Source: Bradymonadales bacterium | Lineage (GTDB): Bacteria > Myxococcota_A > UBA9042 > PWKZ01 | Direction of reading: 5' to 3' | Length of the DNA stretch: 64,000 bases | Assembly (NCBI GenBank): GCA_003559575.1 | Contig: PWKZ01000169.1 | Coordinates: 197 to 64,196 of the forward strand | Shown: one piece after another, positions 2,076 to 64,000 of the stretch | How the letters are laid out: each line of letters starts with the position of its first letter | Numbering within the stretch: the first letter of the stretch is position 1 | Notes under the pieces: model-generated | What the model saw: the letters and a program-made list of their open reading frames with translations, nothing else | Told to the model about the DNA's origin: nothing | Database searches by the model: none | Position numbers and translations under genes: made by a program

Positions 2076-3728
2076 TCAAAGGTAGGCGGGGTCGCTGTAG
2101 ACTCCGAACTCCTCGCGGAAACAGTCGCTCAACTCCCCGACAGTAACTTTGGCCTTGACCGCCTGCAGGACCGCCGCCATCAGGTTGTCTTTGTGGCTGT
2201 CGCCACTTAGCGCCGCCTTGCGCACCTGGTCCAGGGCTCGGGCGGCGGCGTCGGGATCGCGCCGCCGCCGGAGATCGGCGATGCGCTCCTTTTGGATCCG
2301 CTCCACCTCGGGATCGATGCGCAAGAGCGGAATCCGGGCCTTATCCGCCTCTTGGTGGACATTGACTCCCACTATCCGCTGCTCACCCTCCTCCACTTGA
2401 CGCTGGAATCGGTACGCGCTCTCGGCGATTTCCATCTGCGGGTAGCCCGCTTCAATGGCCGCCACGATACCGCCCATCTCGTCGATCCGGTGGATATACG
2501 CGAGGGCCTCCTCTTCAATCCGGTCGGTCATAGATTCGATGAACCACGAGCCCCCAAGTGGATCGATCGTGTTGGTGACACCGGTCTCCTCGGCGATTAG
2601 CTGTTGAGTCCGGAGCGCAAGGGAGGCGGCCGCCTCGGTCGGGAGCGCATAGGTCTCGTCGAGGGAGTTGGTGTGCAACGACTGAGTGCCGCCCAACACC
2701 GCCGCGAGCGCCTGGAGAGCTGTGCGCACCACGTTGTTGTAGGGTTGCTGGGCCGTGAGCGAGACTCCGGCCGTCTGGCAGTGGGTGCGCAGCAGCATGG
2801 CGCGTGGGTTCTTGGCCCCAAAGCGCTCCTTCATGGTGCGCGCCCAAATGCGGCGTGCCGCCCTGAGTTTGGCTATCTCCTCAAAGAAGTCGTTGTGGAC
2901 GTCGAAGAAGAAGCTCAATCGTGGTCCGAAGCGGTCCACATCCAGGCCCGCCTCGATCCCCGCCTGCACATAGCCGATTCCGTCGGCCAGGGTGAAGGCC
3001 AACTCCTGGACCGCGGAGGCCCCCGCCTCACGGATGTGGTAGCCACTGATCGAGATCGGATGCCACAGCGGCATTCGTTCGGTGCAAAACACCATCATGT
3101 CGCGAATGATTCTCATGGATGGGTTCGGCGGACAGATCCACTCCTTTTGGGCGATGAACTCCTTCAGAATGTCGTTCTGGGTTGTGCCCCGTAGCTTGTC
3201 GAGCTTGTAGCCCTGGCGCTCCGCCACCGCCGCATACATGCACAAAAGGACTATCGCGGGGGCGTTGATGGTCATGGAGGTGCTCACCTCGCCGAGCGGG
3301 ATGCCGTCGAACAGGCGCTCCATGTCCTCCACGCTGGCGACCGCGACTCCCTCTTTGCCCACCTCCCCCATCGACATCGCGTGGTCGGGGTCGTAGCCCA
3401 TCAGGGTCGGCATGTCGAATGCGGTCGAGAGGCCTGTCTGGCCGGCCTCCAACAAGTACTTGAATCGCGCGTTGGTGTCCTCCGGGGATCCAAACCCGGC
3501 GAACATTCTCATGGTCCACAGCCGGCCACGATACATCGACGGGTATACGCCGCGCGTAAAAGGGTACTCTCCGGGCAAGCCCAAACTCTCGAAATACTTC
3601 TCGTCGGGCTGCTCGGGGGCGTACAAAGGATCCACATCGAGCCATGAGAGAGTCTGGTGGTGCGCCTTGCGTTGCGACGCGCCCCTAAGCTCCGCTTGCC
3701 AGCGCTCCAGTCGCTCCTTGCCGTTCAT
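2076..3728 (-). CDS. methylmalonyl-CoA mutase family large (catalytic) subunit, without fused B12-binding domain
   Basis: 550-aa ORF. The translation reads as an acyl-CoA mutase TIM-barrel catalytic domain (family-level resemblance, no specific signature motif checked). No C-terminal cobalamin-binding domain, so a separate small subunit is expected elsewhere. Confidence 0.8.
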
Positions 3729-3810
3729 GTCTGAGACTCCTCACTCGCTTTGAGGCGGCCCGGCGTTCCGCCGTGGCGCCACGATTTCGGCTTGGTCGAG
3801 GCCCATTTTG

Positions 3811-4983
3811 TCAAATGACGCCATGCTGTTTGCCGACTTTGACAAAAGCCGCGATGGCGCGGTCAAGGTGCTCACGCGTGTGGGCCGCGCTCACCTGCAC
3901 ACGGATTCGCGCCTTGTTTTGCGGCACCACCGGGTAGGAGAAGCCGATCACGTAGATTCCCTCGGAGAGCATGTCTCGTGCCATGTTCGCGGCGAGCTGC
4001 GCGTCGCCCAGCATGATCGGTACAATCGGATGCACTCCCGGCCGGATGGAAAAACCGCGGGTCGTCATTTCTTCTCTGAAGTAGCGCGTGTTGGCTTCAA
4101 GTGTGTCGCGCCGCTCGGTGGAGGTCGCCAGAAGATCGAGGACCTTCATGGCGGCGCCGGCGATTGGAGGGGGCAGTGTGTTGGAGAACAAATAGGGCCG
4201 CGACCGGTTGCGCAAAAGCTCGACTATTTCGGTCCTCGCGCTGGTGAAGCCACCCGACGCGCCACCGAGCGCCTTGCCGAGCGTGCTGGTGATGATATCA
4301 ATGCGGTCCATCACCCCACAGTGTTCATGAGTCCCTCGGCCGGTTCGTCCGACGAAGCCGGTGGAGTGGGAGTCATCGACCATCACGAGCGCGTCATACT
4401 GATCGGCCAGATCACAGATCTTGTCGAGAGGCGCGATGTTACCGTCCATCGAGAAGACACCGTCGGTCGCGATTACGCGGAAGCGGGCGTCGGCGGCCTC
4501 TTTGAGCTTGGCCTCGAGATCGGCCATGTCGGCGTTGCGGTAGCGATAGCGCCGCGCCTTGGACAACCGGACGCCGTCGATGATCGAGGCGTGGTTGAGT
4601 TCGTCACTAATAATGGCGTCTTCGGCCTTGAACAGCGTCTCGAACAGGCCCCCATTGGCATCGAAACATGAGGAGTAGAGGATCGTGTCTTCCATGCCGA
4701 GAAAGTCGGACACTTTGCGCTCGAGCTGCTTGTGGATCTCTTGGGTGCCACAAATGAACCGGACCGAACTCAGCCCGTAGCCCCAACGATCAAGCGCCTC
4801 GTGGCAAGCCGCCAGGAGGTCGGGATGACTCGAGAGGCCAAGATAGTTATTGGCGCAAAAGTTTATCACCCGCTCGCTGCCGACCTCGATATCGGCTCCC
4901 TGGGGTGACGTAATCACCCGCTCATCCTTCGACAACCCGGCCGCACTGATCTCTTTTAGCTCTTGCTGTAAGAACCCTTTCAT
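3811..4983 (-). CDS. kbl: glycine C-acetyltransferase (2-amino-3-ketobutyrate CoA ligase)
   Basis: Near-colinear similarity to E. coli Kbl ([29 protein letters not shown], pyridoxal-Lys region [13 protein letters not shown]). Start placed at the Met aligning with the E. coli N-terminus. ORF track gives 3811..5007. Confidence 0.85.
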
Positions 4984-5028
4984 TTTGCCGTACATTTGAG
5001 ACTCCATAAGACAAATCTGGTGGCTCGT

Positions 5029-6078
5029 TCAAGGAATCAGGACAACTTTGCCGGAAACTTTGGGTCGCCGGACCATCAGCTCGAAGCCTTCGGCGAACTC
5101 GGACAGCGGCAGCTTGTGGGTGATTATCGGGCTGATATCCAACCTACCGGAGGCCAGCAGGTTACGCACCTCAAACCAGGTGTCGAACATCAGACGTCCA
5201 TTGATCCCATAAACCGTCACCCCTTTGAAGACGATTCCATCGTTGAGATCGATTGAGACCCGGCCGCCGGCCACTCCGAAGGCCGAAAATCGGCCCCCCT
5301 TGCGCACCATCTTGAAGCCGAGATCGATGGCCCGCTGGGTGCCGGCCATATCCAACACCACATCGACGCCAAGCCCGTCGGTTTCAGAGAGAAGCGTCCC
5401 TTCGATGTCATCGCGGTTGTCGTCGAGGGTTTGTGTCGCCCCGACCTTTCGCGCGATCTCCATCCTCACCGGGTGCCGCCCGACCAGGAAAGTCTTGCTC
5501 GCTCCCGCCACATGGGCGACAGCCGCCGCGAACAGGCCAGTTGGGCCGTCACCGAAGATGAGTACGCTCTTGCCCACCACGGGTTCCACCAGGGTGCAGT
5601 AAACTGCGTTCCCGAGAGGCTCCTGAACGGCCGCGAGCTCCGGGGCGACCGACGGGTCGTTTTTCCAGGCGACGATCTCGGGCACCACCGCGTATTCGGC
5701 GAAACAGCCGTCACAGTCGACGCCCAATATCTTTAGATTATTACAGATATGCATCTGACCGGTCAGGCACTGTTTGCACGCCCGGCACGGGATGTGAGTC
5801 TCGGCCGAGATGAAATCGCCCACCTTGATCCGCCTCACTTCGGAGCCGACCTCGACCACTTCACCGGCGAACTCGTGGCCGAGGATCTGCGGTAGGTCGC
5901 GAATCCGCCCGGCGGCCCATGAGTTCCAGCCGTAAATATGGACGTCGGTGCCACAGATCGAGGTCGCTTTGACGCGCACCAGGACTTCATCGGCACCCGG
6001 TCGCGGTATCGACCGTGTCACCAGCTCCGCCCCCGCCTCAGCGGCGCTCTTTACAACCGCCTGCATCAGTTCGCCCAT
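5029..6078 (-). CDS. tdh: L-threonine 3-dehydrogenase
   Basis: Zn-dependent MDR-family dehydrogenase with Tdh-like N-terminus (ATSICGTDVHIY, GHEFAGEVVEVG). Start uncertain (Met23 or Met27 of the ORF 5029..6144). Immediately upstream of kbl, the classical threonine-to-glycine pair. Confidence 0.85.
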   Translation of the reverse strand: MGELMQAVVKSAAEAGAELVTRSIPRPGADEVLVRVKATSICGTDVHIYGWNSWAAGRIRDLPQILGHEFAGEVVEVGSEVRRIKVGDFISAETHIPCRACKQCLTGQMHICNNLKILGVDCDGCFAEYAVVPEIVAWKNDPSVAPELAAVQEPLGNAVYCTLVEPVVGKSVLIFGDGPTGLFAAAVAHVAGASKTFLVGRHPVRMEIARKVGATQTLDDNRDDIEGTLLSETDGLGVDVVLDMAGTQRAIDLGFKMVRKGGRFSAFGVAGGRVSIDLNDGIVFKGVTVYGINGRLMFDTWFEVRNLLASGRLDISPIITHKLPLSEFAEGFELMVRRPKVSGKVVLIP

Positions 6079-6317: not shown

Positions 6318-7508
6318 TTGATGGTAGGGCCAAGGTGGGAGGACGACTTGCTGCATCAGCGACCGCAACCTAGTGGAGCCCCTTCCCCACTTGTCGGTGC
6401 CCGAAGACCGCTCGCTTTGACTTCGCGCGTCCCCGCGGGAAGAGAGAGGGGCGCCACGCCCCGCCGGACCTGGGTGCTCTTGCCGGCCTTGGCGGCCCTC
6501 TTGATTGCGGCTCCGGCATCGTCCGCCGATGATGACCTGGGCGAGAGACTCGGGCTACGGGTGCGCGCCGCGGCCGAGCACGGCCGCAGTCGCCCCGCGA
6601 TTTTACTTACTCCCGCTCTGCCGATCGCAACCCTGGTGATCGAACTCGAGCGCTCGGGCGGAACCTCAGAGACTCTCCGCGGCCGCGATCTGCGCCCCGG
6701 TCGAGAGCATGGCTTTGAATTTGACCAACCGCTCGGTGAGCACAGCTTTGAAGCCACGGCGCGAGGTACTTTCGCGGGGGGCGAGCGTTTCGAGCTACCC
6801 TTCGCGTTCGACTCCATCAGCTTCAAACCACTCAAACTCGATCTCCGCAAAGAGGATGTCTGTCTCGACGAGCGGCGCATCACGATTCGCCTCAACCGTG
6901 AGGTGGAGCGAATCGAATACGTCGTCACGGCCGACGGCGGCAAAGTGGTGGCGCGCGGCCAGGAGCCGCCAAGCGCGCCTCCGGGGCGCCCGATGACCAT
7001 AACTTGGGAGGGCGGCGGGGAGGTAACGGAGCGGATCTCGCTCAAGGCCCGCGACAGCCACGGCTTCTGGGTCGGCGTTGAGGTGACACCGTTTTCAGTA
7101 TTCATTCCTCACGACGAGGTGGAGTTCGAGACCGGTAAGTGGTCGATCCGTCCGAGCGAAACTCCCAAGCTTCAAGATACTCTGCGTCAGATCCGCGAGG
7201 CGCTGGCCTTGCACGGACGGGAGCTCGACTTGCAGCTCTATATTGCCGGATACACCGACACGGTGGGTAGCCGCAGCTCGAATCAGATATTGAGCGAGCG
7301 GCGCGCGCGCGCGATCGCGGGCTGGTTTCGGGCCCAAGGTGTTGGAGTTCCAGTCTATTATCAGGGCTTCGGCCAGGATGTGTTGGCAGTCGCGACCCCA
7401 GACCAGACGGCCGAGAAGCGCAACCGCCGCGCGCTTTATGTGCTGAGCGCCGGCCCCCCATCGCAGAGCCCCGCGATCCCACGCGATGCCTGGAAGAGCC
7501 TCCCATAA
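6318..7508 (+). CDS. OmpA family protein (C-terminal OmpA-like domain)
   Basis: C-terminal OmpA_C motif (YIAGYTDTVGSRSSNQILSERRARAIAGW). Hydrophobic signal-like segment (LLPALAALLIAAPASSA) suggests the true start is internal, possibly GTG near 6475. The stop codon TAA lies inside the repeat TIR. Confidence 0.6.
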   Translation: MMVGPRWEDDLLHQRPQPSGAPSPLVGARRPLALTSRVPAGRERGATPRRTWVLLPALAALLIAAPASSADDDLGERLGLRVRAAAEHGRSRPAILLTPALPIATLVIELERSGGTSETLRGRDLRPGREHGFEFDQPLGEHSFEATARGTFAGGERFELPFAFDSISFKPLKLDLRKEDVCLDERRITIRLNREVERIEYVVTADGGKVVARGQEPPSAPPGRPMTITWEGGGEVTERISLKARDSHGFWVGVEVTPFSVFIPHDEVEFETGKWSIRPSETPKLQDTLRQIREALALHGRELDLQLYIAGYTDTVGSRSSNQILSERRARAIAGWFRAQGVGVPVYYQGFGQDVLAVATPDQTAEKRNRRALYVLSAGPPSQSPAIPRDAWKSLP

Positions 7509-7681
7509 TCGTCGGCTCATCCCGGGATTCGCGCGCGGATTCACGCACATCTGCGGCGTCACCTGCACCGAATTAGTGCTCGACGTAGGCGCTGCGTTGG
7601 CCTCCGCCTAATTCGGTTTGCTTCCTTGCACATGCACGCGCCTCCACACGCTCGCTCCTCAGAACGAACCGACGATTATGG
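7502..7681. repeat. MITE-like intergenic repeat, copy A (~180 bp, 13-14 bp terminal inverted repeats)
   Basis: Begins CCATAATCGTCGG and ends CCGACGATTATGG (exact reverse complements). Internal blocks GGATTCACGCACATCTGCGGCGTCACCTGCA and GAATTAGTGCTCGACGTAGGCGCTGCGTTGGCC are shared with copies at 9491, 24445 and 63820. Confidence 0.7.
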
Positions 7682-7709
7682 GTGTAGTCTCTCTGGACCG
7701 CGGGTTGCG

Positions 7710-9488
7710 ATGGGACTATCATGTTCGGGAGATCACCCCGGAGTATATACCGGGCAGTGGCGGATCTCGCGGGAGGTTACTTTGCGCCTCGACTACAGCC
7801 GATTTCTCTTGCTCCTCGTGTTTTTGCCGGCGCCATCCCTCGTTGCGTGCGACCCCGTCCCTGTCTGGCCCGAGGGAGATCGCCGCGCCGACCTCGTGCT
7901 GTCCCTGGCCAACCTGATTGACGGCGAGGACTCCGGCGAAAACCACCTCGGCGAGATCCGTGGCCTGCGCGTTCGGCTCGACGCCGGCCATGAGACGGAC
8001 GACCCGAGGGCGCCGGTCTACGATAGCGGTTGTTCGGAGTACAGTGGTGATCGCCTTCGGATCTCCTCGCTCGAGATTCGTGACGACTACCGCATCAGGA
8101 TCGACCTGTTTAAAGATCCCGCCTGCGAGGAGCTTGCATTCCGTGGTGTCCGCGGGGGAATGAAGGTCTCCGAAAAACGCGACGAGGGCGCCCCCTACTT
8201 GATCGCAATGCTGGCGACGAACGCGTTCACCGGTTTACCCGGGGTGGCCGGAGAGCACTATCCGCTCAACTCGGTCCGGCGCCGGGCGTTCCACACAGCC
8301 ACCGCCATCGGCGATGGCCGGCTAGTACTGCTCGGTGGAGCCGAGGGGGTCCGCTCGTCCGATTTCATCGGTGGCGAGGGAGCCCCCGAGATCTTCGACA
8401 CCCGGACAATGCTCTTCTCGCGGAGCACGCGCCATGAGTTGGCGTCGCGGCGGCTCATGGCGCATGCCACGGCCTGGCTGCCCGGCGGCCTCCTCGCGGT
8501 CGGCGGTGGCGTCCAGGCCTTTCGCCTGGGGAAGGACACCGCCGGACGAGTCGAGCTGCAAATCCCAAGTGAGATCTGCTACGGCGACAGTTGCGACACC
8601 GTCAATTACATCCTCGATTTCAGCTTCCTGGATCTCCATGAACACATTGAGCTCGAGTACCCACTCGCGTCGGCGCGCGTCTTCCCTACCCTCGATGTCG
8701 TCCGCCTTTCGGCCGGCGACACGCTCATCCTGGTCGGTGGGGAACCAGGCGTCTTTGACACCGCGGCGGGTTCTGCTTTCGCATGCTCCGTGGTCGAGGG
8801 CCTCGCGCCGAAATGCGATCCGCTGCCTCTCGCATACTCCCGCGCCGGGCACACTTCGGCCTGCATTCGCCGCACCGCCGATGGTGCCTGTACCTCCCTG
8901 GCGCTGCTTGGGGGAGTGGAGCCGGGCCACCGGCTTGTCGAGTGGATAGCTCTTGGCCAGCAGACCGCTCATGACCATTTCATCGCGGCGGTGGTCGATA
9001 ACTCACGACTCGACTCCTCGCTCTTGTTGCCGCGCGCGGTGGGGCACGACGGACACATCTTCATGACCGGCGGCGCGCTTGGACGTATCCCCACCGCAGA
9101 GAGGCGCGCAGGCCCGGCCGCCATCACACTCTCGGAGGCCGGCACCGGATTTTTTAGATTTCTCGACATGGACCAGGAGCTTGGCCCTGACGCGGGTGAG
9201 CTTTTGTTTCATACCGTCACTCTCCTCGCCGACGATCGCGTCCTTTTGGCCGGCGGTGTAGGCCCCGACAATGACTCTCGCGACGAAGCATTCGTCCTCC
9301 GCCACGAGGGCTCCACCTACGTCGTGGATCAATCACTGCGCCTCAAACAGGCCCGCTTCGGCCACACCGCGACCCGAGTGGAAGGCGGTCCACTCGACGG
9401 CGCGGTCGTGATCTTCGGCGGCGTCGATTTCGACGCCGAGGGACGGCCCCACATGGTTGAGACCGCCGAAATCTTTCTGCCCGAATAA
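7710..9488 (+). CDS. Kelch-repeat-like beta-propeller lipoprotein
   Basis: Repeated GG-containing motifs typical of Kelch blades (VLLGGAEG, LLAVGGG, LILVGGEPG, LALLGGVEPG, VVIFGGVD). Signal peptide with lipobox (APSLVAC). ORF track start 7626 lies inside the repeat; the real start is probably ATG 7710 or TTG 7782. Confidence 0.5.
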   Translation: MGLSCSGDHPGVYTGQWRISREVTLRLDYSRFLLLLVFLPAPSLVACDPVPVWPEGDRRADLVLSLANLIDGEDSGENHLGEIRGLRVRLDAGHETDDPRAPVYDSGCSEYSGDRLRISSLEIRDDYRIRIDLFKDPACEELAFRGVRGGMKVSEKRDEGAPYLIAMLATNAFTGLPGVAGEHYPLNSVRRRAFHTATAIGDGRLVLLGGAEGVRSSDFIGGEGAPEIFDTRTMLFSRSTRHELASRRLMAHATAWLPGGLLAVGGGVQAFRLGKDTAGRVELQIPSEICYGDSCDTVNYILDFSFLDLHEHIELEYPLASARVFPTLDVVRLSAGDTLILVGGEPGVFDTAAGSAFACSVVEGLAPKCDPLPLAYSRAGHTSACIRRTADGACTSLALLGGVEPGHRLVEWIALGQQTAHDHFIAAVVDNSRLDSSLLLPRAVGHDGHIFMTGGALGRIPTAERRAGPAAITLSEAGTGFFRFLDMDQELGPDAGELLFHTVTLLADDRVLLAGGVGPDNDSRDEAFVLRHEGSTYVVDQSLRLKQARFGHTATRVEGGPLDGAVVIFGGVDFDAEGRPHMVETAEIFLPE

Positions 9489-9490
9489 TG

Positions 9491-9737
9491 CCATAATCGT
9501 CGTTCCCTCCAGGGAAACGCGGACGGATTCACGCACATCTTTCTGCCCGAATAATGCCATCGTCGTTCCATCCAGGTATTCGCGCGCGGATTCACGCACA
9601 TCCGCGGCCTCACCTGCAGACGAATTAGTGCTCGACGTAGGCGCTGCGTTGGCCTGCGCCCAAGAACGGCTTGTTTCCTCGCACATGCACGCACCTCCAC
9701 TTAGCGGGTCTCCTCAGAACGAACCGACGATTATGGG
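9491..9737. repeat. MITE-like repeat, copy B (full copy 9557..9737 preceded by a partial 5-prime fragment 9491..9540)
   Basis: Same TIRs and core blocks as copy A. The 26-bp segment AAATCTTTCTGCCCGAATAATGCCAT (3-prime end of the Kelch gene plus element start) occurs twice (9469 and 9533). A solo TIR-like CGACGATTATG recurs at 9813. Confidence 0.7.
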
Positions 9738-9844
9738 GAACGCCCGGGCGCTTGACCTTTCCGGATCATCTCGTGCTAGAATCCGCGCGCCGCTGGCAAT
9801 GTCCACGCGGACGACGATTATGATTCGAGAGGAGGTTCCCCACC

Positions 9845-11626
9845 ATGTCGCAACAGGACCCCGGAGGGTCGACTGTGCCCTCCCACAACTCTCCGACACT
9901 GTTGATCGGTCTGGGTGGGCTCGGCCGAGAGGTCATTTTTCGCACACGCCGACGCCTGTACGAACGCTACCGTCGCACCGAGCTTCCTTTTGTCGATTAC
10001 CTCTGGTTGGACGAGGACATCTCAACCGACCCGATCCCTGAATTGCCCACTCGCATCGCCGGCAAAGTGGCGCTGCCGGTGGAGCGAAGGGTGTCATTGG
10101 CGCTCGATCCACCGGATGCGCTCGAGTTCACACGACGGCAAGCCGATTCCGGTCATGAAGAGTACGCCTCCTTCGCCGAGATTTTGAAGCGCAGTCCCTC
10201 GTTCCCGCGCTCGAGACTTTTGGGTAGGTTGGCGCTGGAGCACAAGTCGGGCGAAGCCACCCAGAAACTGCGCGCCGCGCTTGCCGCCATCTCGTCCGAC
10301 ACCGCGCGAGAATCATCTCGAGCGCTCGGCTTCGAAGTCGCCACCGACAGCGCGCCGCAGGTGATTCTCATCTGCAGCCTTGCCGGCGGGATCGGCTCGG
10401 GCGCACTATTGGCGATGGCGCAGATCGTTCGCCGCGAGTGTCCCGACGCTCACGTGCGAGGGATCCTGTTCTTGTCCGGCCTCTTCATGGCGCACGACGT
10501 CCGCCGCCGCCGGATTGCCATGTCCAACGGCTACGCCGCATGCCGCGAACTAACGGCCGATCAAGAGCGCGCCGAGCGGCCGCTCGTCGATCTGCTCTAC
10601 TTGATCGACCGCGAGAACGCAGCCGGAAGCCGCCCCATCGATCCGCTCGAACCGCTGGAGATGGTCGCGGAAACTCTGACCCTGGAGTTCTCGCGCTCCG
10701 AGATGGCGGCCGCGCTGCGGCGGGAACGTTATCGACTACCTCGAGCGCGCGGGTTCAGATCCTTCGGGCTTGCAGGAGTGGCTCCCGGCGGCGGGCGGTT
10801 GCGGAGTGCCGCCGCGTACCTCTTGGGCGCCGAATTGCTGGACTTCTTCGCCGCTCCTGAAGCGCGCCCGGCACCGAGCGATTGCGGCTTTGAAGGCCCC
10901 TGGCCGACAGAGAAAATTTCTGCCGCGGCACGCGACATTCGGGAAGAATTCGAGACCTACGACATTCCTCCGGTGGAGGAGCGAAATGAAGAGATCTCGA
11001 CCGCATATGACCTGCGAAAGCTGCTCTACGAGCATTTGCGCACCGAACTCAATCTCCCTGCCTCGGCACAGACAATCAAGGTAATCGAGGAGCTGGCCAC
11101 GCGGCTGCCCCGCTTTATCGCCACTGCGCCGGTTGCCGGCGCGGAGCCCAGCGACCCCGTCGAGTTGTTTTTGGATCGTTTGGAGCAGTTCTGCCTCAAC
11201 GCCTGCAGCCACCTGGATCGCCGTGTCGTGGAATCGGGACCGATAGTCGACCACGCCACGCTGGCGCGAATGCTCGAATCCTTATGCGCGTGGTCCGAGC
11301 CGTGGGCGCCGATTGCGCCCCCGCTCCAGAAGGGCGAGGAACGCTCACTGGTGGGCGGGGGCCTGCCGCGCGAGGTCCCGATGTTGCTCTCTCTGGACGC
11401 TCCGCTCTTCGCCCACCACCCCGGCAGCATCTCTTTGTACCGTGAGTCGGCGAGCCTCCCCCCTTCACGCTACAACACTTTCGCCGCATGTCGGCGTGAA
11501 TATCTCGAGTTCTCCGCCGAAGAGCCCGCGAGCTCGGCTCACCGACACACCGTCGCGCGTCCCGATGACCTCCCTGACCCGCTCGTCGAGGCGCCCCGGG
11601 ACTCCGCGGACACTCCGGCTACGTAA
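9845..11626 (+). CDS. divergent tubulin/FtsZ-superfamily GTPase-like protein (Tubulin_2-like)
   Basis: N-terminal Gly-rich loop LLIGLGGLGREV and later SLAGGIGSG resembling the tubulin signature GGGTGSG. AGGAGG-like RBS before the ATG. No other family motif recognised. Confidence 0.45.
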   Translation: MSQQDPGGSTVPSHNSPTLLIGLGGLGREVIFRTRRRLYERYRRTELPFVDYLWLDEDISTDPIPELPTRIAGKVALPVERRVSLALDPPDALEFTRRQADSGHEEYASFAEILKRSPSFPRSRLLGRLALEHKSGEATQKLRAALAAISSDTARESSRALGFEVATDSAPQVILICSLAGGIGSGALLAMAQIVRRECPDAHVRGILFLSGLFMAHDVRRRRIAMSNGYAACRELTADQERAERPLVDLLYLIDRENAAGSRPIDPLEPLEMVAETLTLEFSRSEMAAALRRERYRLPRARGFRSFGLAGVAPGGGRLRSAAAYLLGAELLDFFAAPEARPAPSDCGFEGPWPTEKISAAARDIREEFETYDIPPVEERNEEISTAYDLRKLLYEHLRTELNLPASAQTIKVIEELATRLPRFIATAPVAGAEPSDPVELFLDRLEQFCLNACSHLDRRVVESGPIVDHATLARMLESLCAWSEPWAPIAPPLQKGEERSLVGGGLPREVPMLLSLDAPLFAHHPGSISLYRESASLPPSRYNTFAACRREYLEFSAEEPASSAHRHTVARPDDLPDPLVEAPRDSADTPAT

Positions 11627-11706
11627 CACGCCAACCGCAAGGAGACCCTCCAACGGCAGAAGATCGCCTCGCCGGGCGGTGAGGCCTTTGCAAGGGACTG
11701 TATGCC

Positions 11707-13644
11707 ATGGCCCGGACTGATTACACTGAAAAAGATATCAAGGTGCTCGAGGGTCTGGCCGCGGTCCGCCGCCGCCCCGGGATGTACATCGGCTCCACCG
11801 GCTCACGCGGGCTGCATCATCTCGTCTACGAGATCGTGGACAACTCGGTGGATGAAGCCCTCGCCGGGTACTGCAGCCGAATCGATGTTCGCCTCGATCC
11901 CGGCGAAGTAGTGACGATCAAGGATGATGGCCGCGGCATCCCCACCGGGACGCATGAAAGCGGCATCCCCACCACGGAAGTGATCTTCACCAAACTACAC
12001 GCCGGCGGCAAATTCGACTCAGAGAGCTACAAAGTCTCCGGCGGGCTACATGGCGTCGGAGCGTCGGTGGTCAACGCGCTGTCGGATTTCTTCGAGGTCG
12101 AGAGCCGACGCGACTCGGTCATCCATCGCCAGCGATTCGAACGCGGGGATGAAACGATTGGGCCCCTCGAACGGCTGGGCCCCACCTCAACCTGCGGGAC
12201 GACTATCCGTTTTCACCCCGACCCATTGATCTTCAAGACGATCCACTTCGACAGAACGCTTATCGCGCGGCGTCTGCAGGAGCTCGCATACCTGAGTGCC
12301 GGCGTCAAGATGACCCTCACCGACGCCCGCGAGACGCCGCAGTGGCGCGAAGCGTGGTGTTATGAAGGGGGGATCGTGGCATTCACCGAATACATGAACG
12401 AAGGCCGCGTGCCCGTGCACGAGCCGCTCTTCTTCCAGGACGCCGAGTCGGGGATCGAGGTCGCGTGTGCGCTACAGTACCACGACGGCTACAACGAGTC
12501 CCTGATGAGCTTCGTCAACTGCATCCACACCGCCGAGGGCGGTCAGCACGAGACCGGTTTCCGCAGCGCTCACACCCGCGTGATGAACGAGTATGCGCGA
12601 CGCTACGGCATCTGGAAGCGCAAGGAGAACCTCTCTGGTGAGGATCTGCGCGAGGGGATGACGGCGGTCTTGAGCCTACGCATGCCGGAGACCGAGTTCG
12701 AGGGACAGACCAAGACGCGGCTCGGGAACCCCGAGGCCCGAACCGTGGTGGACGGCGTCGTCACGCGCCGCCTGTCGGCTTATCTGGAAGAGAACCCCGA
12801 CGAGGCCCGCAAGATCATTGACAAGGCCTGCCGTGCGATGCAGGCCCGTTCTGCCGCCCGGCGGGCCCGTGAAGCGTCCCGGAAGGGCAAGGAGAACACC
12901 GGCCGATCATCGCTCGGCGGCAAGCTCACGCGTTGTTCGAGCCGGAAAACCGAGGAGACGGAGCTGATAATCGTCGAGGGCGACTCGGCCGGGGGCTCGG
13001 CCAAGAAAGCCCGAGACCGCCGGGTTCAGGCGATTTTGCCGCTCAGAGGTAAACCGCTCAACACCGAGCGCGCACCGCTGACCAAGGTCCTGCAAAATCG
13101 AGAGATGTTGACCATCATCCAAGCCCTCGGCGCCGGAGTTGGGGCCGACTTCAATCTCGATGAGACCCGCTACGGGAAAGTGGTCATCCTCGCGGACGCC
13201 GATGACGACGGCGCGCATATCCGCTGCCTCTTGCTCACATTTCTCTATCGCCACATGCGCCCCCTCATCAATGCGGGGAGGGTGTTTATCGCCCAACCGC
13301 CGTTATTCAAGGTCGAGCGCGGCGGCAAACGTCGCGCCACCGTCTATGCCTGGAATCATGAGGAGCTTGCCGCGGCGTTATCCAAGCTCGGCAAGGGCGC
13401 GACCATCCAACGGTTCAAGGGGTTGGGTGAGATGGCCCCAGGGCAGCTGTGGGAAACGACCCTCGATCCCGCGACCCGAACCCTCCTTCGAGTCCAAATC
13501 GAAGACGCCGCGGCGATCGAGCATCAGGTCAGCGTCCTGATGGGCGACAGCGCCTCGCTCCGCCGTGAATGGTTGAGTAAAAACGTCTCGTTTGGGGTCG
13601 ATCCCCTCGGGGATGCGACCGAGCTGGCACGCAATCCCGAATGA
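11707..13644 (+). CDS. gyrB: DNA gyrase subunit B
   Basis: GHKL ATPase and TOPRIM motifs (HAGGKFD, GLHGVGASVVNALS, EGDSAGGSAKKARDR, PLRGKPLN). Followed directly by gyrA. Confidence 0.9.
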   Translation: MARTDYTEKDIKVLEGLAAVRRRPGMYIGSTGSRGLHHLVYEIVDNSVDEALAGYCSRIDVRLDPGEVVTIKDDGRGIPTGTHESGIPTTEVIFTKLHAGGKFDSESYKVSGGLHGVGASVVNALSDFFEVESRRDSVIHRQRFERGDETIGPLERLGPTSTCGTTIRFHPDPLIFKTIHFDRTLIARRLQELAYLSAGVKMTLTDARETPQWREAWCYEGGIVAFTEYMNEGRVPVHEPLFFQDAESGIEVACALQYHDGYNESLMSFVNCIHTAEGGQHETGFRSAHTRVMNEYARRYGIWKRKENLSGEDLREGMTAVLSLRMPETEFEGQTKTRLGNPEARTVVDGVVTRRLSAYLEENPDEARKIIDKACRAMQARSAARRAREASRKGKENTGRSSLGGKLTRCSSRKTEETELIIVEGDSAGGSAKKARDRRVQAILPLRGKPLNTERAPLTKVLQNREMLTIIQALGAGVGADFNLDETRYGKVVILADADDDGAHIRCLLLTFLYRHMRPLINAGRVFIAQPPLFKVERGGKRRATVYAWNHEELAAALSKLGKGATIQRFKGLGEMAPGQLWETTLDPATRTLLRVQIEDAAAIEHQVSVLMGDSASLRREWLSKNVSFGVDPLGDATELARNPE

Positions 13645-13673
13645 TTCCAGACCGCCACCGCGGAGATTGATCG

Positions 13674-16295
13674 ATGAGTAAAGCACAAAACGACGTGCAC
13701 GACGCCATACTCGACATCGGGCTCGATCAGGAGCTTGGGATCTCCTATGGGCGTTATGCCCAGACCATCATCCTGGACCGAGCCATCCCCGATGTCCGCG
13801 ACGGGCTCAAGCCCGTTCAGCGCCGTATCCTGTATGCCATGTTCAACGGGCGCAACATGCCTGACAAGCCCTATCGCAAGAGCGCCAAGACCATCGGCGA
13901 TGTGATGGGCAACTACCACCCCCACGGCGACCAGAGCATCTATGAGGCGCTCGTTCGGTTGTCGCAACCGTGGAAGATGCGGCAACCGCTGGTGGATGGG
14001 CACGGCAATTTCGGCTCTATCGACGATGATCCGCCGGCCGCGATGCGTTATACGGAGGCCCGGTTGGCCCCCGCTTCGTTGGAGCTCCTGGCGGAGATCG
14101 AGAACGACACCGTCCCCTGGCGATTGAATTTCGATGAGTCGACCACCGAGCCCGAGGTGTTGCCGGCCGCGTATCCCAACCTTCTGGCCAACGGCGCCTC
14201 GGGGGTCTCCACCGGCTTCGCCACCGAGATCCCGCCGCACAACCTGAGCGAGGTGTGCGAAGCGGTTTGCCTCCGCATCGATCACCCCCAATCCGGTGTC
14301 GATGAGCTTTTGGACGTGATGCCGGGGCCGGACTTTCCCACCGGCGGCATCGTCCTCGGACGCGACGGAATCCGCGAAGCCTATGAAACGGGGCGCGGCC
14401 GAGTGAAGATCCGCGCCCGCCACACAATGGAGCGTGGCGAGGGGGGACGTCCGCTGTTTGTGGTTCACGAGCTTCCCTACGGAGTGGTGAAAGCCAACCT
14501 GGTGCGGGAGCTCGACCAGCTCCGGCAAAATCGCGCCGTCCAAGGCCTGGTCGACGTCCGCGATGAGAGCGACCGGGAAGGCCTCCGGCTCATCATCGAG
14601 GTCCAACGCGGAGCCGACGAGGAGGGGATCTGGAACTATTTGCTGCGCAAGACCTCCCTTCAGGTCTATTTCCATTTCAACATGGTGGCGATTCACGAGC
14701 ACCGCCCCTTCGAGTCGGGCGTGATAGGGCTCCTGGACGCTTATCTCGACCATCGACGTAAGGTGCTGCGGCAGAGCGCGACCTTCAAATTGAAAAAGAC
14801 GATGGAGCGTCTCCATCTCGTCGAGGGTCTTATCCGCGCGGTGGATGTGCTCGATGAGGTCATCGCCACCATACGCGCTTCGGAGGACCGCGCTCGAGCC
14901 CACTCCGCGCTGATGGAGCGCTTCGCCTTCACCGACGCCCAGACCGAGGCCATCCTCGACCTCCGTTTGCACCGCTTGACAGGGCTCCAGATCAACGCGC
15001 TGCGCGCCGAGTTAGACGAGCTCAACAAAAAGCGGGCGGCTCTCGAGCGCCTCCTCGGCAGCCAAAAGCTGATGGACAAGGAGATAAAGATTGGTCTCAG
15101 GGATGTCGCCAAACGTCTCGGGGATGCTCGTCGCACCGAGATCCAAGATGAGACCGGCAATCAGGAGGTCGCGCTGGAGGTGCGCGTCAAGCCTCAACCA
15201 ACCGTCGTGGTGGTCACCGATCGCGGCTACATCAAGCGCTCCTCGCTGCAGAGCTTCATGGCCGCCGGTGGTTCGCCCGAGTCCGCGGGAGTGCGGGACG
15301 GCGACTTCCCCCGGTTCGTTCTCACCACCAACACAATCCACAGGGTGCTGCTGTTCACCGCGCGGGGGGCGGTCTACAGCTTGCCGGCCCACATGATACC
15401 GGAGGCACGGTTCACCGATCTGGGCATGGCGTTGGTCAATGTGGTGCCGTTCGAAAAGGACGACCAGTTGGTTGGGGTCGTCGCGCCGGAGAGCTACTCC
15501 GAGGAACACGCGCTCGTCTTTCTAACTGAGCGAGGGCAACTGAAACTCACCACTCTGGACCATTTCGATCTACGCCGCTCCGGGGCCTCGGTGGCGACAC
15601 GACTTTTGGGCAAGGACCGTGTCGCGGCTGTCATCTCCGTGGCGGCTGAATCCGACCTCCTCGTTTTGACCAGGCTGGGGCAGAGCATCCGCTTCCCCCT
15701 CGCGCAGGTGAATCCCCAAGGCCGCAACGCCCGGGGCGTCAGAGCCATGGGCGTCGATCCGGGCGATGCCGTGGTGACCGGATTGTCGGTGCCGCCCGCC
15801 GCGGAGTTGACTTGCCAGGTGGCGATTTTTACGCAATCCGGTAAAGGGAAACGCACCCCCCTCGAGAGTTATCCCCGACAGCATCGTGGCGGCAAAGGAG
15901 TCCGCACAGTCATGGGCCGCGGGAGACAACCACACCTGCTATGCGCCGCGGCCCTCACCTCGAGCGACGAGAATCTGTTTCTGCTGTTCGACAACGAGGG
16001 GGTGGCGTGCCGAATCGCGAGCCGCGAGCTTCGTTGCACTCGGCGCGATGGGAACGTCTTCAAGATCTCCGCGCTCGCCGGGAAAAGAGGGCTCAAGGCG
16101 GCGCTCCCGGTGGCCCCCGAGGGCAACGGGGCGGAGGGAGACGCCTCCCCGGAGTCGGGTGAAGGTGATGCCGCCCCCGTGCCCACCGAGAATGAAAACA
16201 CGCCTGCACCACCCGATCAGAGCCCGTCTCCGAGCCACCAACTTACTCTCCTCCCTACCAAGCCGGCCGATGGCGGGGAGGGAGACCCAGATTGA
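13674..16295 (+). CDS. gyrA: DNA gyrase subunit A
   Basis: Active-site region AMRYTEARL and GyrA-box RQHRGGKG (distinguishes GyrA from ParC). Acidic, Pro-rich C-terminal tail. Confidence 0.9.
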
Positions 16296-16375
16296 CACTC
16301 CAAGGGCGTTGTTGCTAGTCTGCCGCCCCGCCGGGCGTCATCGGCGAGGAAACCGAGATTGTTTGCGGAGGAAAT

Positions 16376-22524: not shown

Positions 22525-24312
22525 TCAGACGAGATCTTCAATCGCCAGGGCCCCATCCGAACACTGTCGGACCTCGGCCACGCGAGTTACCTGAGGTGCC
22601 CCGTCTCGTCCCGTTTCCAACTGGACGAGCACGTCGAGGGCCTCCGTCACGAGGCCGCCCAAAGCGGGGCCGCTGCTCTCACAGGCAGTGACCTCACCGC
22701 AGATGGCCATGGTGCGCCACACAAATCCCTCGAGGTTTCGACCGACGGAGGAAGCGAGCACTTGAGGGGCGACCTCGTGGGAAGCAACGATAAACGGAGC
22801 CAAGGAAAATGAGTCGACCCCATTGACCACGAGGGTGTCGATCCCGAGCCCGGTTACCCGCTCGAACAGCCCGGAGCCAATTCCCGGGGCATCGAGGCTC
22901 AAAGAGATGACTCCCGGCTGTGAGAGGCGGACGCCGGGTCCTGAATCCACCAGCCCGATGACTGAGTCGGCGGAGAGAATCTGAGTGATGGCGTTGAGAA
23001 CCATGGTGTTGACGCGACTGGACGGGCCCAGCACCAATAAGCTGCGCCCGGAGGCCACAAGCGCAAGCAGCTTATGCGCGAGGTTTGCCTCGAGCGCTCC
23101 GGCGGCGACGAGATCATCGAGCGAAAAGGCCGTCGACGGCGCCTTCTTGAGACAGCACAGCGGGGCAAATCCCACCAGGGGCGGGAGCAATATCCTGACG
23201 CCCACGTCTCCGGCCAGACGTCCTCTCACCTCGACTCTCTCATCCTCGGCGCCCAGCAGTGACTTGAGACGCCAGAGCTCACTCTCGTACTCACCGGCCC
23301 CCCGGAACCCAGGGCGCCAGAGCGAGACACTCCCTCGGCGACAGAGGAAGATCTTGTCGAACGCGACCGCGTTCACCTCCTCGACGTCGGGCACCGCGAT
23401 GAGTAGTTCCAGCAGCGATTTCCCAGCGAGCAACGCCGCTAATCCCTCGATGTCGAACTTCTTGGGAAGCTCGCCGGCCTTGACCATCGGCTTGAGCAGA
23501 CCTGCCACAATAGACGCAAACGCCTCGAGATCGCCCTCGCCGTAGGCCTCCGCCAGCGCGGGTTTCGTGCCCCAGGAGTCCACCACGCGCTCGGCCGCCA
23601 TCGCGATAACCTGGGGCTCGAACGCGGACTGGGGCGGCGCGAGCGGCATCACCGGCGCGGTTGCTTCGTGGGTGGCCGGCGCGTCAGGCTCTCCTATCGC
23701 GACCTCCTCGTCGGGCCCTTGGTCGTCGAGCGGCGCCGGTTGCGGTGGGGCGGGCGGCTCACCTCGCTCGTCGCCCTCCGCGGGCTGGTCGACCTGTGTC
23801 CCTAGATCGGTCGCTTCCACCTCTCCGGCGGATGTGTCAACGGGATCATCGAGCTCATCGGTCGGACCGGCCGGCGGAGTCGGTGGCGGGATATCAATGG
23901 GATCCGGCGGCAGGGGTGGTGGCGGAGGCTCGCTCTGAGCCGCGGCCGCGGGCTGAGGAGCCGTCACGTGCGCAGACGGCGAGTCGCCGAACGAGACCGG
24001 TTCGTCGGTCGCCACCGCGGCCTCACCCAACTCGAGCCGCAGCACGAAATCGCCCACATAAATCTTGTCCTCCGGCGTGACCACCACCGGCGCGTTGATT
24101 TTACGGGCGTTGAAATAAGTCCCGTTGGTGCTCCGCAGATCGACGACGAAGAATTTATCGCCTCGCTGAACGATTCGCGCATGACGCTTGGACACGTTTC
24201 CGCGCGGCAGCACGATATCGTTGTTTTTTCCGCGACCGACGCTGACCTCCTCTTGATCGAACGTCCGCCGACTCTCTTCACCACCCCTCTCTTTGATGCG
24301 TAATGTATACAT
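22525..24312 (-). CDS. FHA-domain protein with Pro-rich linker and C-terminal CpaF/VirB11-like ATPase-like domain lacking Walker A
   Basis: N-terminal FHA (VSVGRGKNNDIVLPRGNVSKRHARI...TNGTYFN). C-terminal region is colinear with type II/IV secretion ATPases, but the P-loop reads GPSSRVNT instead of GxxGxGKT. Confidence 0.55.
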   Translation of the reverse strand: MYTLRIKERGGEESRRTFDQEEVSVGRGKNNDIVLPRGNVSKRHARIVQRGDKFFVVDLRSTNGTYFNARKINAPVVVTPEDKIYVGDFVLRLELGEAAVATDEPVSFGDSPSAHVTAPQPAAAAQSEPPPPPLPPDPIDIPPPTPPAGPTDELDDPVDTSAGEVEATDLGTQVDQPAEGDERGEPPAPPQPAPLDDQGPDEEVAIGEPDAPATHEATAPVMPLAPPQSAFEPQVIAMAAERVVDSWGTKPALAEAYGEGDLEAFASIVAGLLKPMVKAGELPKKFDIEGLAALLAGKSLLELLIAVPDVEEVNAVAFDKIFLCRRGSVSLWRPGFRGAGEYESELWRLKSLLGAEDERVEVRGRLAGDVGVRILLPPLVGFAPLCCLKKAPSTAFSLDDLVAAGALEANLAHKLLALVASGRSLLVLGPSSRVNTMVLNAITQILSADSVIGLVDSGPGVRLSQPGVISLSLDAPGIGSGLFERVTGLGIDTLVVNGVDSFSLAPFIVASHEVAPQVLASSVGRNLEGFVWRTMAICGEVTACESSGPALGGLVTEALDVLVQLETGRDGAPQVTRVAEVRQCSDGALAIEDLV

Positions 24313-24444
24313 TGGCTTCTCCGAGCGAGCGAGATCGCAGGTTTAGACTAAGACCGTCGGCCGCCCAATGTGTTCGGCTCTCCTGAACAACGGCGCCTCC
24401 ATTGTGAAACAACCACAGTGACCCGTCAAGGCGCCCTCGCAAAT

Positions 24445-24620
24445 CCATAATCGTCGGTTCGTTCTGAGGAGCCCCGCTAAGTGGAGTCGCGTGCATGTGC
24501 AAGGAAACAAGCCGTTCTCAGGCGGAGGCGTAGCAGAGCCTACGTCGAGCACTAATTCGTCTGCAGGTGACGCCGCAGATGTGCCTCAATCCGTCCGCAA
24601 ATCCCAAGATGGGCGCCATC
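24445..24620. repeat. MITE-like repeat, copy C (inverted orientation, degenerate distal end)
   Basis: Starts CCATAATCGTCGGTTCGTTCTGAGGAG, the reverse complement of the 3-prime end of copies A/B. Contains CCTACGTCGAGCACTAATTCG and GGTGACGCCGCAGATGTG cores. Overlaps the annotated 5-prime end of the mlaE ORF. Confidence 0.6.
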
Positions 24621-25493
24621 CGCGGATTGCCCGTGAACGCATTTTCGATTAGGCTCGCTTGCGCGGCGGGGCGGTATTTTTCTGCCCACCAGGAGGAGAA
24701 GCTGAACACACTCTTCCAGCGAATCCCGACCGGAATCGAAACGCTCGGGAGTCGGATTATTGCGGCCATCGAGAGCGTCGGCGAAGCGGTGATCATCCTC
24801 GTGATGTCATTGCTCTGGGCCGTCCGACCGCCGCTCCGCCTGCGTCAATTCATTTTGGCGCTTCACTTCGTTGGGGTGGGCTCACTCTTCATCGTCGGGC
24901 TCACGGGGCTCTTCTCCGGCGGCGTCATGGCGCTTCAGATCGGCCAGGCCTTTCGCATGTTCAACGCCGAGACCTTGACCGGTCCGACGGTCGCCCTGGC
25001 GTTGTCCCGGGAGCTTTCGCCGGTCTTCACCTGTCTCATGATTACGGCCCGCGCCGGCTCGGCGATGGCGACCGAGCTTGGGACGATGCGAGTCACCGAA
25101 CAGCTGGACGCGCTGCGGACCATGGCCGTCAACCCCATCGACTATCTGGTGGCCCCGCGCATACTGGCCTGCCTCCTGATGGCCCCTGCCTTGACGATGT
25201 TTTTCAATCTGATTGGAATGTTCGGCTGCTGGCTGGTGGCGGTGCAGTTCCTCGGCATCGATCACGGCATCTTCATGGCGCGAATCCGCGAGTTCGTCCA
25301 CCCTTCCGACATTTTTAACGGAATGGTCAAGGCGACGGTCTTCGGGGTCGTGCTCGCGACCGTCGGGTGTCACCAGGGGCTCACGGCCCAGGGCGGCGCC
25401 CGGGGCGTCGGCATGGCCACTACCCGCGCGGTGGTTATCGCCTCGGTGCTGATCCTGGTGTTCGACTACTTCTTGACGGTGATCATGTTTTGA
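24609..25493 (+). CDS. mlaE: ABC transporter permease, MlaE family
   Basis: Conserved MlaE core (GGVMALQIGQAFRMF, ARAGSAMATELGTMRVTEQLDALRTMAVNP). ORF track start 24567 lies in the repeat; start probably Met 24609 or later. No mlaF/mlaD adjacent. Confidence 0.75.
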   Translation: MGAIRGLPVNAFSIRLACAAGRYFSAHQEEKLNTLFQRIPTGIETLGSRIIAAIESVGEAVIILVMSLLWAVRPPLRLRQFILALHFVGVGSLFIVGLTGLFSGGVMALQIGQAFRMFNAETLTGPTVALALSRELSPVFTCLMITARAGSAMATELGTMRVTEQLDALRTMAVNPIDYLVAPRILACLLMAPALTMFFNLIGMFGCWLVAVQFLGIDHGIFMARIREFVHPSDIFNGMVKATVFGVVLATVGCHQGLTAQGGARGVGMATTRAVVIASVLILVFDYFLTVIMF

Positions 25494-35510: not shown

Positions 35511-35525
35511 TGCCTTGCCTCGCCC

Positions 35526-41489: not shown

Positions 41490-41559
41490 GGGAGACTCCT
41501 TACGGCCGATTTGCGTTGGCGGAGAGCACGGGAGCAGACCGAGCGACAAGCAGCCCTGA

Positions 41560-41641
41560 TCCGGATCCTCTGTTCGACTATAGCTGTCCGGCCAGTAGCT
41601 TTACAACCTCACCCCAAGCGCCCTCACTCCCCTCGGTCCAC
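41560..41641. repeat. partial copy of the intergenic repeat family (shares a 33-bp exact block with 63930..63962)
   Basis: CCCTCGGTCCACGGACGCGGTGGATGATTGAGG is identical at 41609 and 63930. Flanking ATAGCT-containing sequence is also similar. Contains a short stem TCCAC/GTGGA. Confidence 0.45.
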
Positions 41642-41676
41642 GGACGCGGTGGATGATTGAGGATTCTGAGTTGACT

Positions 41677-41691: not shown

Positions 41692-41719
41692 CCAGATCAA
41701 GTTGCCGATGCGCGCTCGC
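41692..41719 (+). promoter_or_regulatory. sigma70-like promoter of nrfHA
   Basis: -35 TTGCCG (41692-41697), 16-nt spacer, -10 TATAAT (41714-41719). GGGGACGG RBS before the nrfH ATG at 41758. Confidence 0.45.
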
Positions 41720-41757
41720 CCTTTATAATCTTTGTGAAAACGTAACGGGGACGGTTC

Positions 41758-54369: not shown

Positions 54370-54376
54370 CCGGACC

Positions 54377-63731: not shown

Positions 63732-63784
63732 GGGACGACGCTCAGAGTTAGCGACCGAGGATTGCCTGTCAAGGCCGGGGCTAC

Positions 63785-64000
63785 CCCCAATCCCCCGCCT
63801 CCACCGGCATTCGGCTGCCGATTCAGGCACATCTGCGGCGTCAGCTTCACCGATTTGGTGCTCCAGATAGCTCGGCTATCCCTCCGCCCGAAATCGGCTC
63901 GCCTCCTTGCAGCTACACCCGCTTCGACACCCTCGGTCCACGGACGCGGTGGATGATTGAGGCCAACCCTAATTCCCCACCTGCACCGGCATTCGCGCGT
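63785..64000. repeat. tandem, diverged copies of the intergenic repeat family (period ~181 bp, truncated by window end)
   Basis: ATTCAGGCACATCTGCGGCGTCAGCTTCACCGATTTGGTGCTC is a mutated version of the copy A core. CCAATCCCCCGCCTCCACCGGCATTCGG at 63785 recurs as CCTAATTCCCCACCTGCACCGGCATTCGCG at 63968. Includes the 33-bp block shared with 41609. Confidence 0.5.

Follow-up and report, generated by a model that had tools for sequence, protein, structure and literature searches.

The DNA considered here is a stretch of 64,000 nt from Bradymonadales bacterium contig PWKZ01000169.1 (positions 197 to 64,196; GC content 64%), and this whole stretch is referred to as the window. Between its genes lie several copies of a repeat of about 180 bp. 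A first-pass annotation, made from the sequence alone, had proposed that these copies form a family of elements resembling MITEs, or miniature inverted-repeat transposable elements. The question is whether they are indeed copies of a mobile element or the products of local duplication, and, if they are mobile, what determines where they come to lie. Taken as a whole, the data are best explained by a mobile MITE family, a reading that we consider quite probable, and its position next to promoters may reflect a choice of target. Four findings described below had not been noted before: insertion produces a 6-bp target site duplication (TSD), subfamilies differ in their termini, the hairpin is strand-asymmetric, and copies occupy a fixed, oriented place beside -35 boxes.

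The 13-mer CCATAATCGTCGG, which is the terminal inverted repeat (TIR) of the element, is found seven times in the window when up to two mismatches are allowed. The expected number is 1.7, and none of 100 shuffled sequences reached seven. Repeat detection joined the intervals 7503-7681, 9491-9736, 24445-24627 (inverted) and 63785-63870. A profile built from four copies was then used to search the window; it retrieved the full copies A (E = 2e-55), C (3e-54), B (1e-53) and E (3e-45). It also retrieved part of a left end at 9491-9540 (1e-6) and, weakly, a right end at 41596-41662 (copy D, 0.009). Together with the start of a tandem copy at the end of the window, this gives four full copies, one partial left end and one partial right end, in agreement with the earlier count of at least five copies in 64 kb. 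Copies are 162-183 bp long, and all six reading frames contain stops or are disrupted by indels between copies.

Evidence for movement comes from a polymorphic site that precedes window position 1 by 83 nt. The ENA contig k141_1625715 (locus L015/L002) has a copy there, whereas the site is empty in the Logan locus L016 and in GCA_007134265.1 (L001), although these genomes are more than 99.7% identical. In an alignment of L015 with L016, the sole difference is a 178-bp sequence, CCATAATCG...CGATTATGG, plus a second CCGTTT; the insertion lies within a divergent intergenic region of 155 bp. Perfect 6-bp TSDs were found at seven copies: L015 (CCGTTT, as confirmed by the empty site), L009b (CCATTT), L007 (ATAGAT), L011 (CCTCAC), L103a (CACAGA), L103b (TCCTTA) and L104 (CTTGGT). 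By chance, 6 bp would agree at the two junctions with a probability of about 2e-4 per copy. These direct repeats are thus unlikely to be fortuitous, and the element makes 6-bp TSDs and has moved recently. We are therefore highly confident that the family is a recently active, non-coding element that is bounded by TIRs and duplicates 6 bp on insertion. Small size (well below the ~800 bp that delimit MITEs), absence of a gene, TIRs, TSDs, dispersed copies and insertion polymorphism are all present, as in other MITEs. When neighbouring proteins were used to look for other filled and empty sites at copies C, D and E, none were found, as the other assemblies either share the copy or break inside it.

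Proteins of the window were found exactly in the soda-lake assemblies GCA_007134265.1 and GCA_007127155.1 (NCBI metagenome-assembled genomes, MAGs), ERZ27301262/63 (ENA) and SRR7083934 (Logan), which are 99.7-99.8% identical to the window (L001 differs at 52 of 18047 positions and L002 at 28 of 13550). The host is an uncultured soda-lake Myxococcota population. For its ParE/GyrB-like protein, the nearest relatives among the GTDB representatives are uncultured Myxococcota/Myxococcales MAGs with 55-66% identity, and because even these are so distant, the lineage must be regarded as poorly sampled. Lactobacillaceae homologues of the same protein (51-55%) are as close as most Myxococcota ones.

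Further copies were sought in databases with a core pattern of 24 nt to which all four full copies in the window conform. Exact matches occurred in nine contigs of the JGI metagenome SL_3KL_010_SED, which hold 11 further copies at unrelated loci; many of these contigs terminate inside the repeat. A tenth metagenome match (L005, ERZ650303) was discarded as a chance 24-nt match within an open reading frame (ORF) of a contig with 53% GC. The pattern had no match in 185,579 GTDB representative genomes, which means that these do not include the source lineage, and none in IMG/VR. A BLASTN search of the PLSDB plasmids with copy A gave no match, and a profile search of 179 kb from 11 uncultured Myxococcota/Myxococcales MAG relatives detected no copy (best E-value 0.017). 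A literature search with TIR and core strings returned only an unrelated Drosophila cDNA. We also queried 5.8 billion proteins with the concatenated six reading frames of copy A, a strategy that relies on ORFs having been called across the element. Only four ORFs matched (P0001-P0004, with P0001 not traced to a contig), and those that could be traced are all from soda-lake assemblies. These matches led to the loci L103 (two full copies and a right-end fragment), L104 (a full copy beside a degenerate one) and L105.

In total, at least 17 further copies exist outside the window at unrelated soda-lake loci, and copies are known from at least 23 distinct loci, with neighbours that include rpsA, nitroreductase, glutamate dehydrogenase and toxin-antitoxin-like genes. 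This bears on the simplest alternative, namely that the repeats arose by local or segmental duplication of intergenic sequence and are not mobile. The window does contain traces of such events, a 66-bp tandem duplication in copy B and the tandem copy that follows copy E. However, copies occur at more than 20 loci whose flanks and genes are unrelated, and together with the TSDs and the polymorphism between filled and empty site this leaves practically no room for such an explanation. The first-pass annotation had stated that a lack of further copies or of TIR-bounded structure would favour local duplication; what the searches returned was the opposite, dispersed copies, and the proposal of a mobile family is borne out.

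When all copies are oriented like copy A and the sequence beyond their right end is read, a promoter motif appears at a nearly constant distance in many of them. Among 17 informative copies, seven (B, C, L007, L008a, L012, L015 and L103c) have TTGAC at an offset of 14-15 nt from the right end, and at the same offset L103a has TTGGC and L103b TTGCT. The background frequency of TTGAC in the window is 0.0011 per position and strand. A full -35/-10 match by the criteria of the promoter tool begins at offsets 12-15 in 6/17 copies, with about 0.006 expected (over the whole window, full matches have a density of 9.4e-5 per position and strand). These are A (TGGACC, 17-nt spacer, TATCAT), C (TTGACG, 17, CACAAT), L007 (TTGACG, 17, TATCTT), L008a (TTGACA, 17, TATGGT), L103a (TTGGCT, 17, TAGAAT) and L103c (TTGACA, 18, TATTTT); at copies A and C the tool itself reports the sites. 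Copy D has TTGAC 8 nt to its right and TTGCCG-16-TATAAT at 41702-41729. The orientation is identical in all promoter-adjacent cases, and the promoters suit the genes that follow them, namely a Tubulin_2-family gene (B; 9845-11626), an FHA-domain gene (C), rpsA (L008a), a nitroreductase gene (L103a) and a glutamate dehydrogenase gene (L103c). We consider it almost certain that this adjacency is not random.

The motif belongs to the target and not to the element, because the empty allele already holds CCGTTT-CCCGCGCGT-TTGACA. Likewise, the 9 nt between the TSD and TTGAC lie outside the element, as they are not conserved between copies. Two processes could then produce the pattern, targeting at insertion or selection among insertions made elsewhere. 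Under the second, the MITE would insert nearly at random, and adjacency would reflect survivorship in a tolerated gap between stop codon and promoter, or a favoured phase in which the element end serves as an UP-like or activator site. Intergenic regions here are short, some copies directly abut an upstream stop codon (copy A, L103c), and the near-palindromic, relatively A/T-rich terminal sequence AACCGACGATT could bind a protein, all of which would suit such a process. Mere tolerance, however, should scatter insertions and not stack them at 14-15 nt in one orientation. Copies with perfect TSDs that are presumably young (L015, L007, L103a) occupy the same position, even though the L015 region has room to spare. 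The promoter pattern is also about equally frequent in perfect-TSD and TSD-less copies, which favours choice at insertion over slow selection, albeit in a small sample. We therefore lean towards targeting at insertion over selection, and regard near-random insertion as a possible but clearly less likely explanation.

Several observations weigh against the reading as a mobile MITE family with a choice of target. About half of the copies, e.g. L009a, L009b, L011, L014, L008b and L104, have no -35-like box at the characteristic offset, as near-random insertion would allow. That TTGAC was present before insertion is documented by a single empty site. The promoters are consensus matches and not mapped transcription starts, and the sample consists of about 23 loci, partly chosen by the conserved-core pattern, and not of a whole genome. 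No recognisable TSD flanks the window copies A, B, C and E; L012, L014 and L009a also lack one. No autonomous element or transposase with these TIRs was found in about 170 kb of related DNA, in which every TIR match is a MITE copy, so that the cognate transposase that had been suggested as a search target did not emerge. Finally, the strand asymmetry of the element described below could have several causes.

As for the mechanism of promoter-directed insertion, a DDE-type transposase acting in trans is predicted to move the element by 6-bp staggered cuts. Target capture would be biased to DNA about 45-50 bp upstream of transcription starts, and the bias might be caused by a DNA-binding domain that reads TTGAC or by promoter DNA that is bent or occupied by RNA polymerase. 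No transposase gene was seen beside any copy in the copy neighbourhoods. Between the paired copies at L008 and L009, where one might lie, there are instead rpsA with a HIT-family gene and small toxin-antitoxin-like ORFs. That the element is non-autonomous is inferred, since no cognate transposase was found. In a more specific and only tentative version, the transposase would integrate the element in one orientation with a staggered 6-bp cut that falls 9 bp upstream of the -35 hexamer, around positions -50 to -45, guided by TTGAC or by promoter-bound RNA polymerase/sigma, and the insertion could create a divergent hybrid promoter from which a hairpin RNA of ~165 nt is made.

The whole element is an imperfect palindrome that can form a hairpin of about 68 pairs, as the folding check proposed in the first-pass annotation brought out. 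In copy A, the fold energy is -102 kcal/mol (z -9.5) on the reverse complement versus -72 kcal/mol (z -4.2) on the other strand, and the hairpin is built of 57 Watson-Crick and 11 G·U pairs, with A·C absent. The better fold lies on that same strand in 14/14 full copies, also when DNA parameters are used. Across 12 copies, 92.5% of the cells are paired, compared with 34-45% in slid controls and with 74% when the structure is mirrored on the opposite strand; there are 120 G·U cells versus 9 A·C cells. Changes on both sides were found in 16/51 pairs, a number that none of 500 shuffles reached, and the subfamily termini compensate each other, with changes on both arms that keep the pairing. In reading this covariation, it has to be considered that TIRs must co-vary for recognition by the transposase anyway and that the copies are mutually related. 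The persistent bias towards one strand is real; RNA, single-stranded DNA or strand-biased mutation could be its cause.

If RNA is the cause, the repeats might be a family of small-RNA genes spread by transposition, in which the G·U-rich strand is made as a hairpin RNA of ~165-180 nt, possibly from a hybrid promoter that joins a -35 box in the flank to CATAAT in the TIR. The strong and consistent strand asymmetry and the compensatory changes in internal helices would fit such a role. At the junction of L015, a single promoter-like site is predicted, TTGTCA-17-CATAAT, which points into the element along the hairpin strand, and the 15-nt offset corresponds exactly to a 17-nt spacer from the reversed -35 box to the TIR CATAAT. 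A hybrid promoter that reads into the best-folding strand would also give a rationale for the G·U asymmetry. On the other hand, the reverse flank hexamer is a good -35 box (TTGTCA) in only 2/9 cases and matches 2-4 of 6 positions in the rest. Rfam 15 gave no match at the gathering score for the whole window and none for copy A even at E ≤ 10. G·T pairs, moreover, also stabilise single-stranded DNA, and the covariation of the TIRs is expected for transposase recognition alone. No terminator-like site was predicted at 7400-9900 or at the L015 site, and the hairpin is not followed by a U-tract on either strand. We therefore reject the intrinsic-terminator function that had been suggested; the missing terminator also speaks against a discrete RNA gene. 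Altogether, a small-RNA gene family appears rather improbable to us.

If single-stranded DNA is what matters, the repeats could instead resemble REP/BIME or IS200/IS605-derived (PATE-like) elements, which are moved as single strands by an HUH tyrosine transposase (RAYT/TnpA). They share with these the abundance of intergenic palindromes or hairpins that matter on one DNA strand, the high copy density and the intergenic location, and the penta-nucleotide targets of IS200/IS605 elements recall the nearby TTGAC, which we regard as a lead only. However, seven copies have 6-bp TSDs, supplemented by a clean pair of filled and empty sites, whereas such elements have none. The TIRs are true ones that reach the element's extreme termini, TTGAC does not abut the element but stands beyond the TSD and 9 variable nucleotides, and no RAYT, TnpA or TnpB gene lies near any copy. 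We consider this explanation very improbable. Neither REP/BIME (palindromes of 20-40 nt without TSD and with a RAYT gene) nor PATEs (without TIR and TSD, inserted directly 3' of a 4-5-nt target) can accommodate an element of 178 bp that has TIRs and TSDs, no such gene nearby and its TTGAC 15 nt away.

In its kind, then, the family is an ordinary MITE family without a known relative; what is unusual is its oriented, promoter-proximal placement. Among the enterobacterial repeats, ERIC/IRU and YPAL-type repeats are imperfect intergenic palindromes of ~130-170 bp with orientation-dependent folding, for which we know of no polymorphism that demonstrates recent insertion with a 6-bp TSD and of no reported fixed distance from -35 boxes. 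The Correia elements of Neisseria (CREE/NEMIS) are similar in being TIR-bounded long hairpins of 100-160 bp that lie directly upstream of genes and interact with promoters. They duplicate TA and carry their own outward promoters. The present family differs from them in its variable 6-bp TSD, its TIR sequence, the lack of sequence similarity and the location of the promoter in pre-existing flanking DNA, and the TSD and the TIR exclude it from the Correia family. A review (PMC10969869) gives a summary of the activity of Correia elements as promoters. Neither this review nor a survey of bacterial MITEs (PMC11602168) mentions MITEs in Myxococcota, and we found no sequence relative of the family in Rfam, PLSDB, the GTDB representatives or the searchable literature.

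The closest precedent for oriented and phased placement is provided by the dif-hunting insertion sequences of the ISAjo2 type (IS1202 family), which insert in a single orientation with the XerC site 5 bp away and make 5-bp TSDs (PMC10132070). Members of the IS1202 family have TGT/ACA ends, a TnsB-like transposase, 3-5-bp TSDs and a target beside the XerC site (PMC10132070). It is only the logic of oriented, phased placement that the two have in common. ISAjo2-type elements are autonomous, 1.5 kb long, begin with 5'-TGT and are directed to dif with the XerC site as landmark, whereas the present element is non-autonomous, 178 bp long, has CC...GG ends and a 6-bp TSD, and takes as its landmark a -35 box 9 nt beyond the TSD. 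Its ends, TSD and landmark thus place it outside the IS1202 family. Ty3/Tf1-type elements are known for promoter targeting, and a bacterial family steered by promoters would, if real, be their prokaryotic counterpart.

If the placement of the MITE family is a matter of target choice, it would represent a rare case of promoter-directed transposition in bacteria. Insertion beside a promoter displaces the upstream DNA from the core promoter by 184 bp, so that the family would offer a natural system in which regulatory DNA is moved away from core promoters by that distance. As far as our searches could find, it is the first MITE family described in this uncultured Myxococcota lineage. It accounts for assembly breaks in these MAGs, spurious annotated ORFs, altered gene ends and mosaic intergenic regions.

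The termini define three subfamilies, which have the central ~110 nt in common. In type 1, the main subfamily, the ends are CCATAATCGTCGG and CCGACGATTATGG, and they are perfect over 13 bp in A, L007, L009b, L014 and L104. Type 2, to which E, D and the L012 right end belong, has the ends CCCCAATCCCCCGCC and GGTGGATGATTGAGG, and type 3 (L009a, L011, L103c and the tandem copy with which the window closes) has CCCTGATTCCCC and GGGGAATTAGGG. Perfect TIRs had been attributed to all copies in the window; this holds only for copy A. In B and C one of the two ends is degenerate, and the termini of D and E are different. L012 (L012:237-416) is a clear chimera, being of type 1 at its left end and of type 2 at its right end, and some TSD-less copies are assembled from mixed variant modules. 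Chimeric and TSD-less copies probably arise through recombination between copies. Tandem or nested clusters were found at the window end, at copy B and at L104 and L105. In L104:78-394, insertion of a type-1 copy took place 11 nt from where a degenerate type-3 copy ends. In L105:144-358 a right-end fragment of type 1 comes after a type-2-like copy, at what seems to be the L009a locus in another sample.

Table 1. Copies of the repeat and associated features in the window
Feature	Position	Strand	Remarks
Copy A, full, 179 bp, type-1 termini	7503..7681	+	TIRs 7503-7515 and 7669-7681; strongly folding strand is minus
Promoter-like site, copy A	7694..7722	+	12 nt right of A; upstream of Kelch-like lipoprotein gene
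Two 66-bp tandem units	9471..9602	+	each comprises the final 20 nt of the Kelch gene region and the first ~46 nt of an element
Left-end fragment, partial	9491..9536	+	TIR CCATAATCGTCGT; part of first 66-bp tandem unit
Copy B, full	9554..9736	+	left TIR degenerate (ATGCCATCGTCGT); right TIR perfect (9724-9736)
TTGACC and extended -10-like TGcTAGAAT (9774-9782), copy B	9752..9782	+	15 nt right of B; read from sequence; 19-nt spacer fails strict scan
Promoter-like site, copy C	24401..24429	-	15 nt from right end; faces FHA-domain gene 22525-24312 (minus)
Copy C, full, inverted relative to A/B	24445..24627	-	right-end TIR 24445-24457; other end degenerate; between divergent genes
Copy D, partial/degenerate right end, type 2	41596..41662	+	41618-41662 near match to L012 right end
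TTGACA, copy E	63767..63772	-	12 nt from left end of E; faces methyltransferase gene starting 63683 (minus); read from sequence
Copy E, full, type-2 termini CCCCAATCCCCCGCC ... GGTGGATGATTGAGG	63785..63962	+	
Tandem second copy, beginning only, type-3 left end CCCTAATTCCCCACC	63967..64000	+	cut by window end; continues in locus L017

Several details reported earlier concern the genes around copies A and B (Table 1). As had been noted, the element provides a stop codon to the OmpA-family gene: ORF 6318-7508 terminates at TAA 7506-7508 inside the TIR of copy A. Removal of copy A would restore ...SLV* instead of ...SLP* at the end of this gene. A TPR gene in L103 is the second gene whose stop codon is supplied by an element end; at L103:5093-5161, the terminal TTAGGG of a type-3 fragment forms the TAG stop of the TPR_19 gene (2607-5159). 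The Kelch lipoprotein gene is bracketed by copies A and B, also in line with the first description, and likely starts at TTG 7782, judging from the 568-aa gene calls in L003/L004. The duplication of the Kelch gene end, given as 26 bp, does exist; exactly repeated are 24 bp (ATCTTTCTGCCCGAATAATGCCAT, starting at 9471 and 9537), and these are part of the larger 66-bp duplication of Kelch end and element, which has its junction at an ATCT microhomology. The two 66-bp units differ from each other at positions that also vary among the subfamilies. The promoter-like site of copy B lies upstream of the Tubulin_2-family gene.

Copy A itself differs between assemblies. Compared with window 7503-7681, L004:17-199 has a 4-nt duplication in the central stem (CCGAATGAATTAG vs CCGAATTAG), which is strain-level variation within a fixed copy.

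The elements also generate spurious ORFs with recurring peptides, as the first-pass annotation had pointed out. A 117-aa ORF has been called over copy B in four assemblies, and six-frame translations yield the peptides. The recurring 'ICGVTCTELVLDVGAALASA' frame is interrupted by indels of one base that distinguish the copies, and a coding role was rejected on these grounds. The database 'proteins' of 117-242 aa (window 9333-9686, minus strand; P0001-P0004) are translation artefacts of the repeat.

Some neighbouring genes deserve mention in their own right. The Tubulin_2-family (PF13809) gene is located directly upstream of a GyrB/ParE-like and GyrA/ParC-like pair and rdgC (window 9845-16300). 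An nrfH/nrfA-like pair (Cytochrom_NNT, Cytochrom_C552; 41758-43877) lies directly downstream of copy D and its strong promoter match. On the minus strand at 29700-41549, there are two tandem paralogous giant genes about 5.9 kb apart, with 73-78% identity over stretches of 120-130 nt. They are full of internal repeats of ~165-750 bp that encode Cys-rich CxxC/DxD motifs, and one ORF among them (35526-41549, 2007 aa) has a weak Cu-binding_MopE Pfam match in another assembly. Within these genes, 29734-30138 and 35800-36291 are very GC-rich runs with a 9-bp periodicity (GCCGCCGGN-type) that would encode Gly-rich triplets on the minus strand. Finally, an operon-like cluster on the minus strand at 51800-63683 comprises a multi-domain methyltransferase, two radical SAM proteins, one of them with a B12-binding domain, and an acyltransferase, and is situated upstream of rimP, a 553-aa gene without Pfam matches, ylxR and infB.

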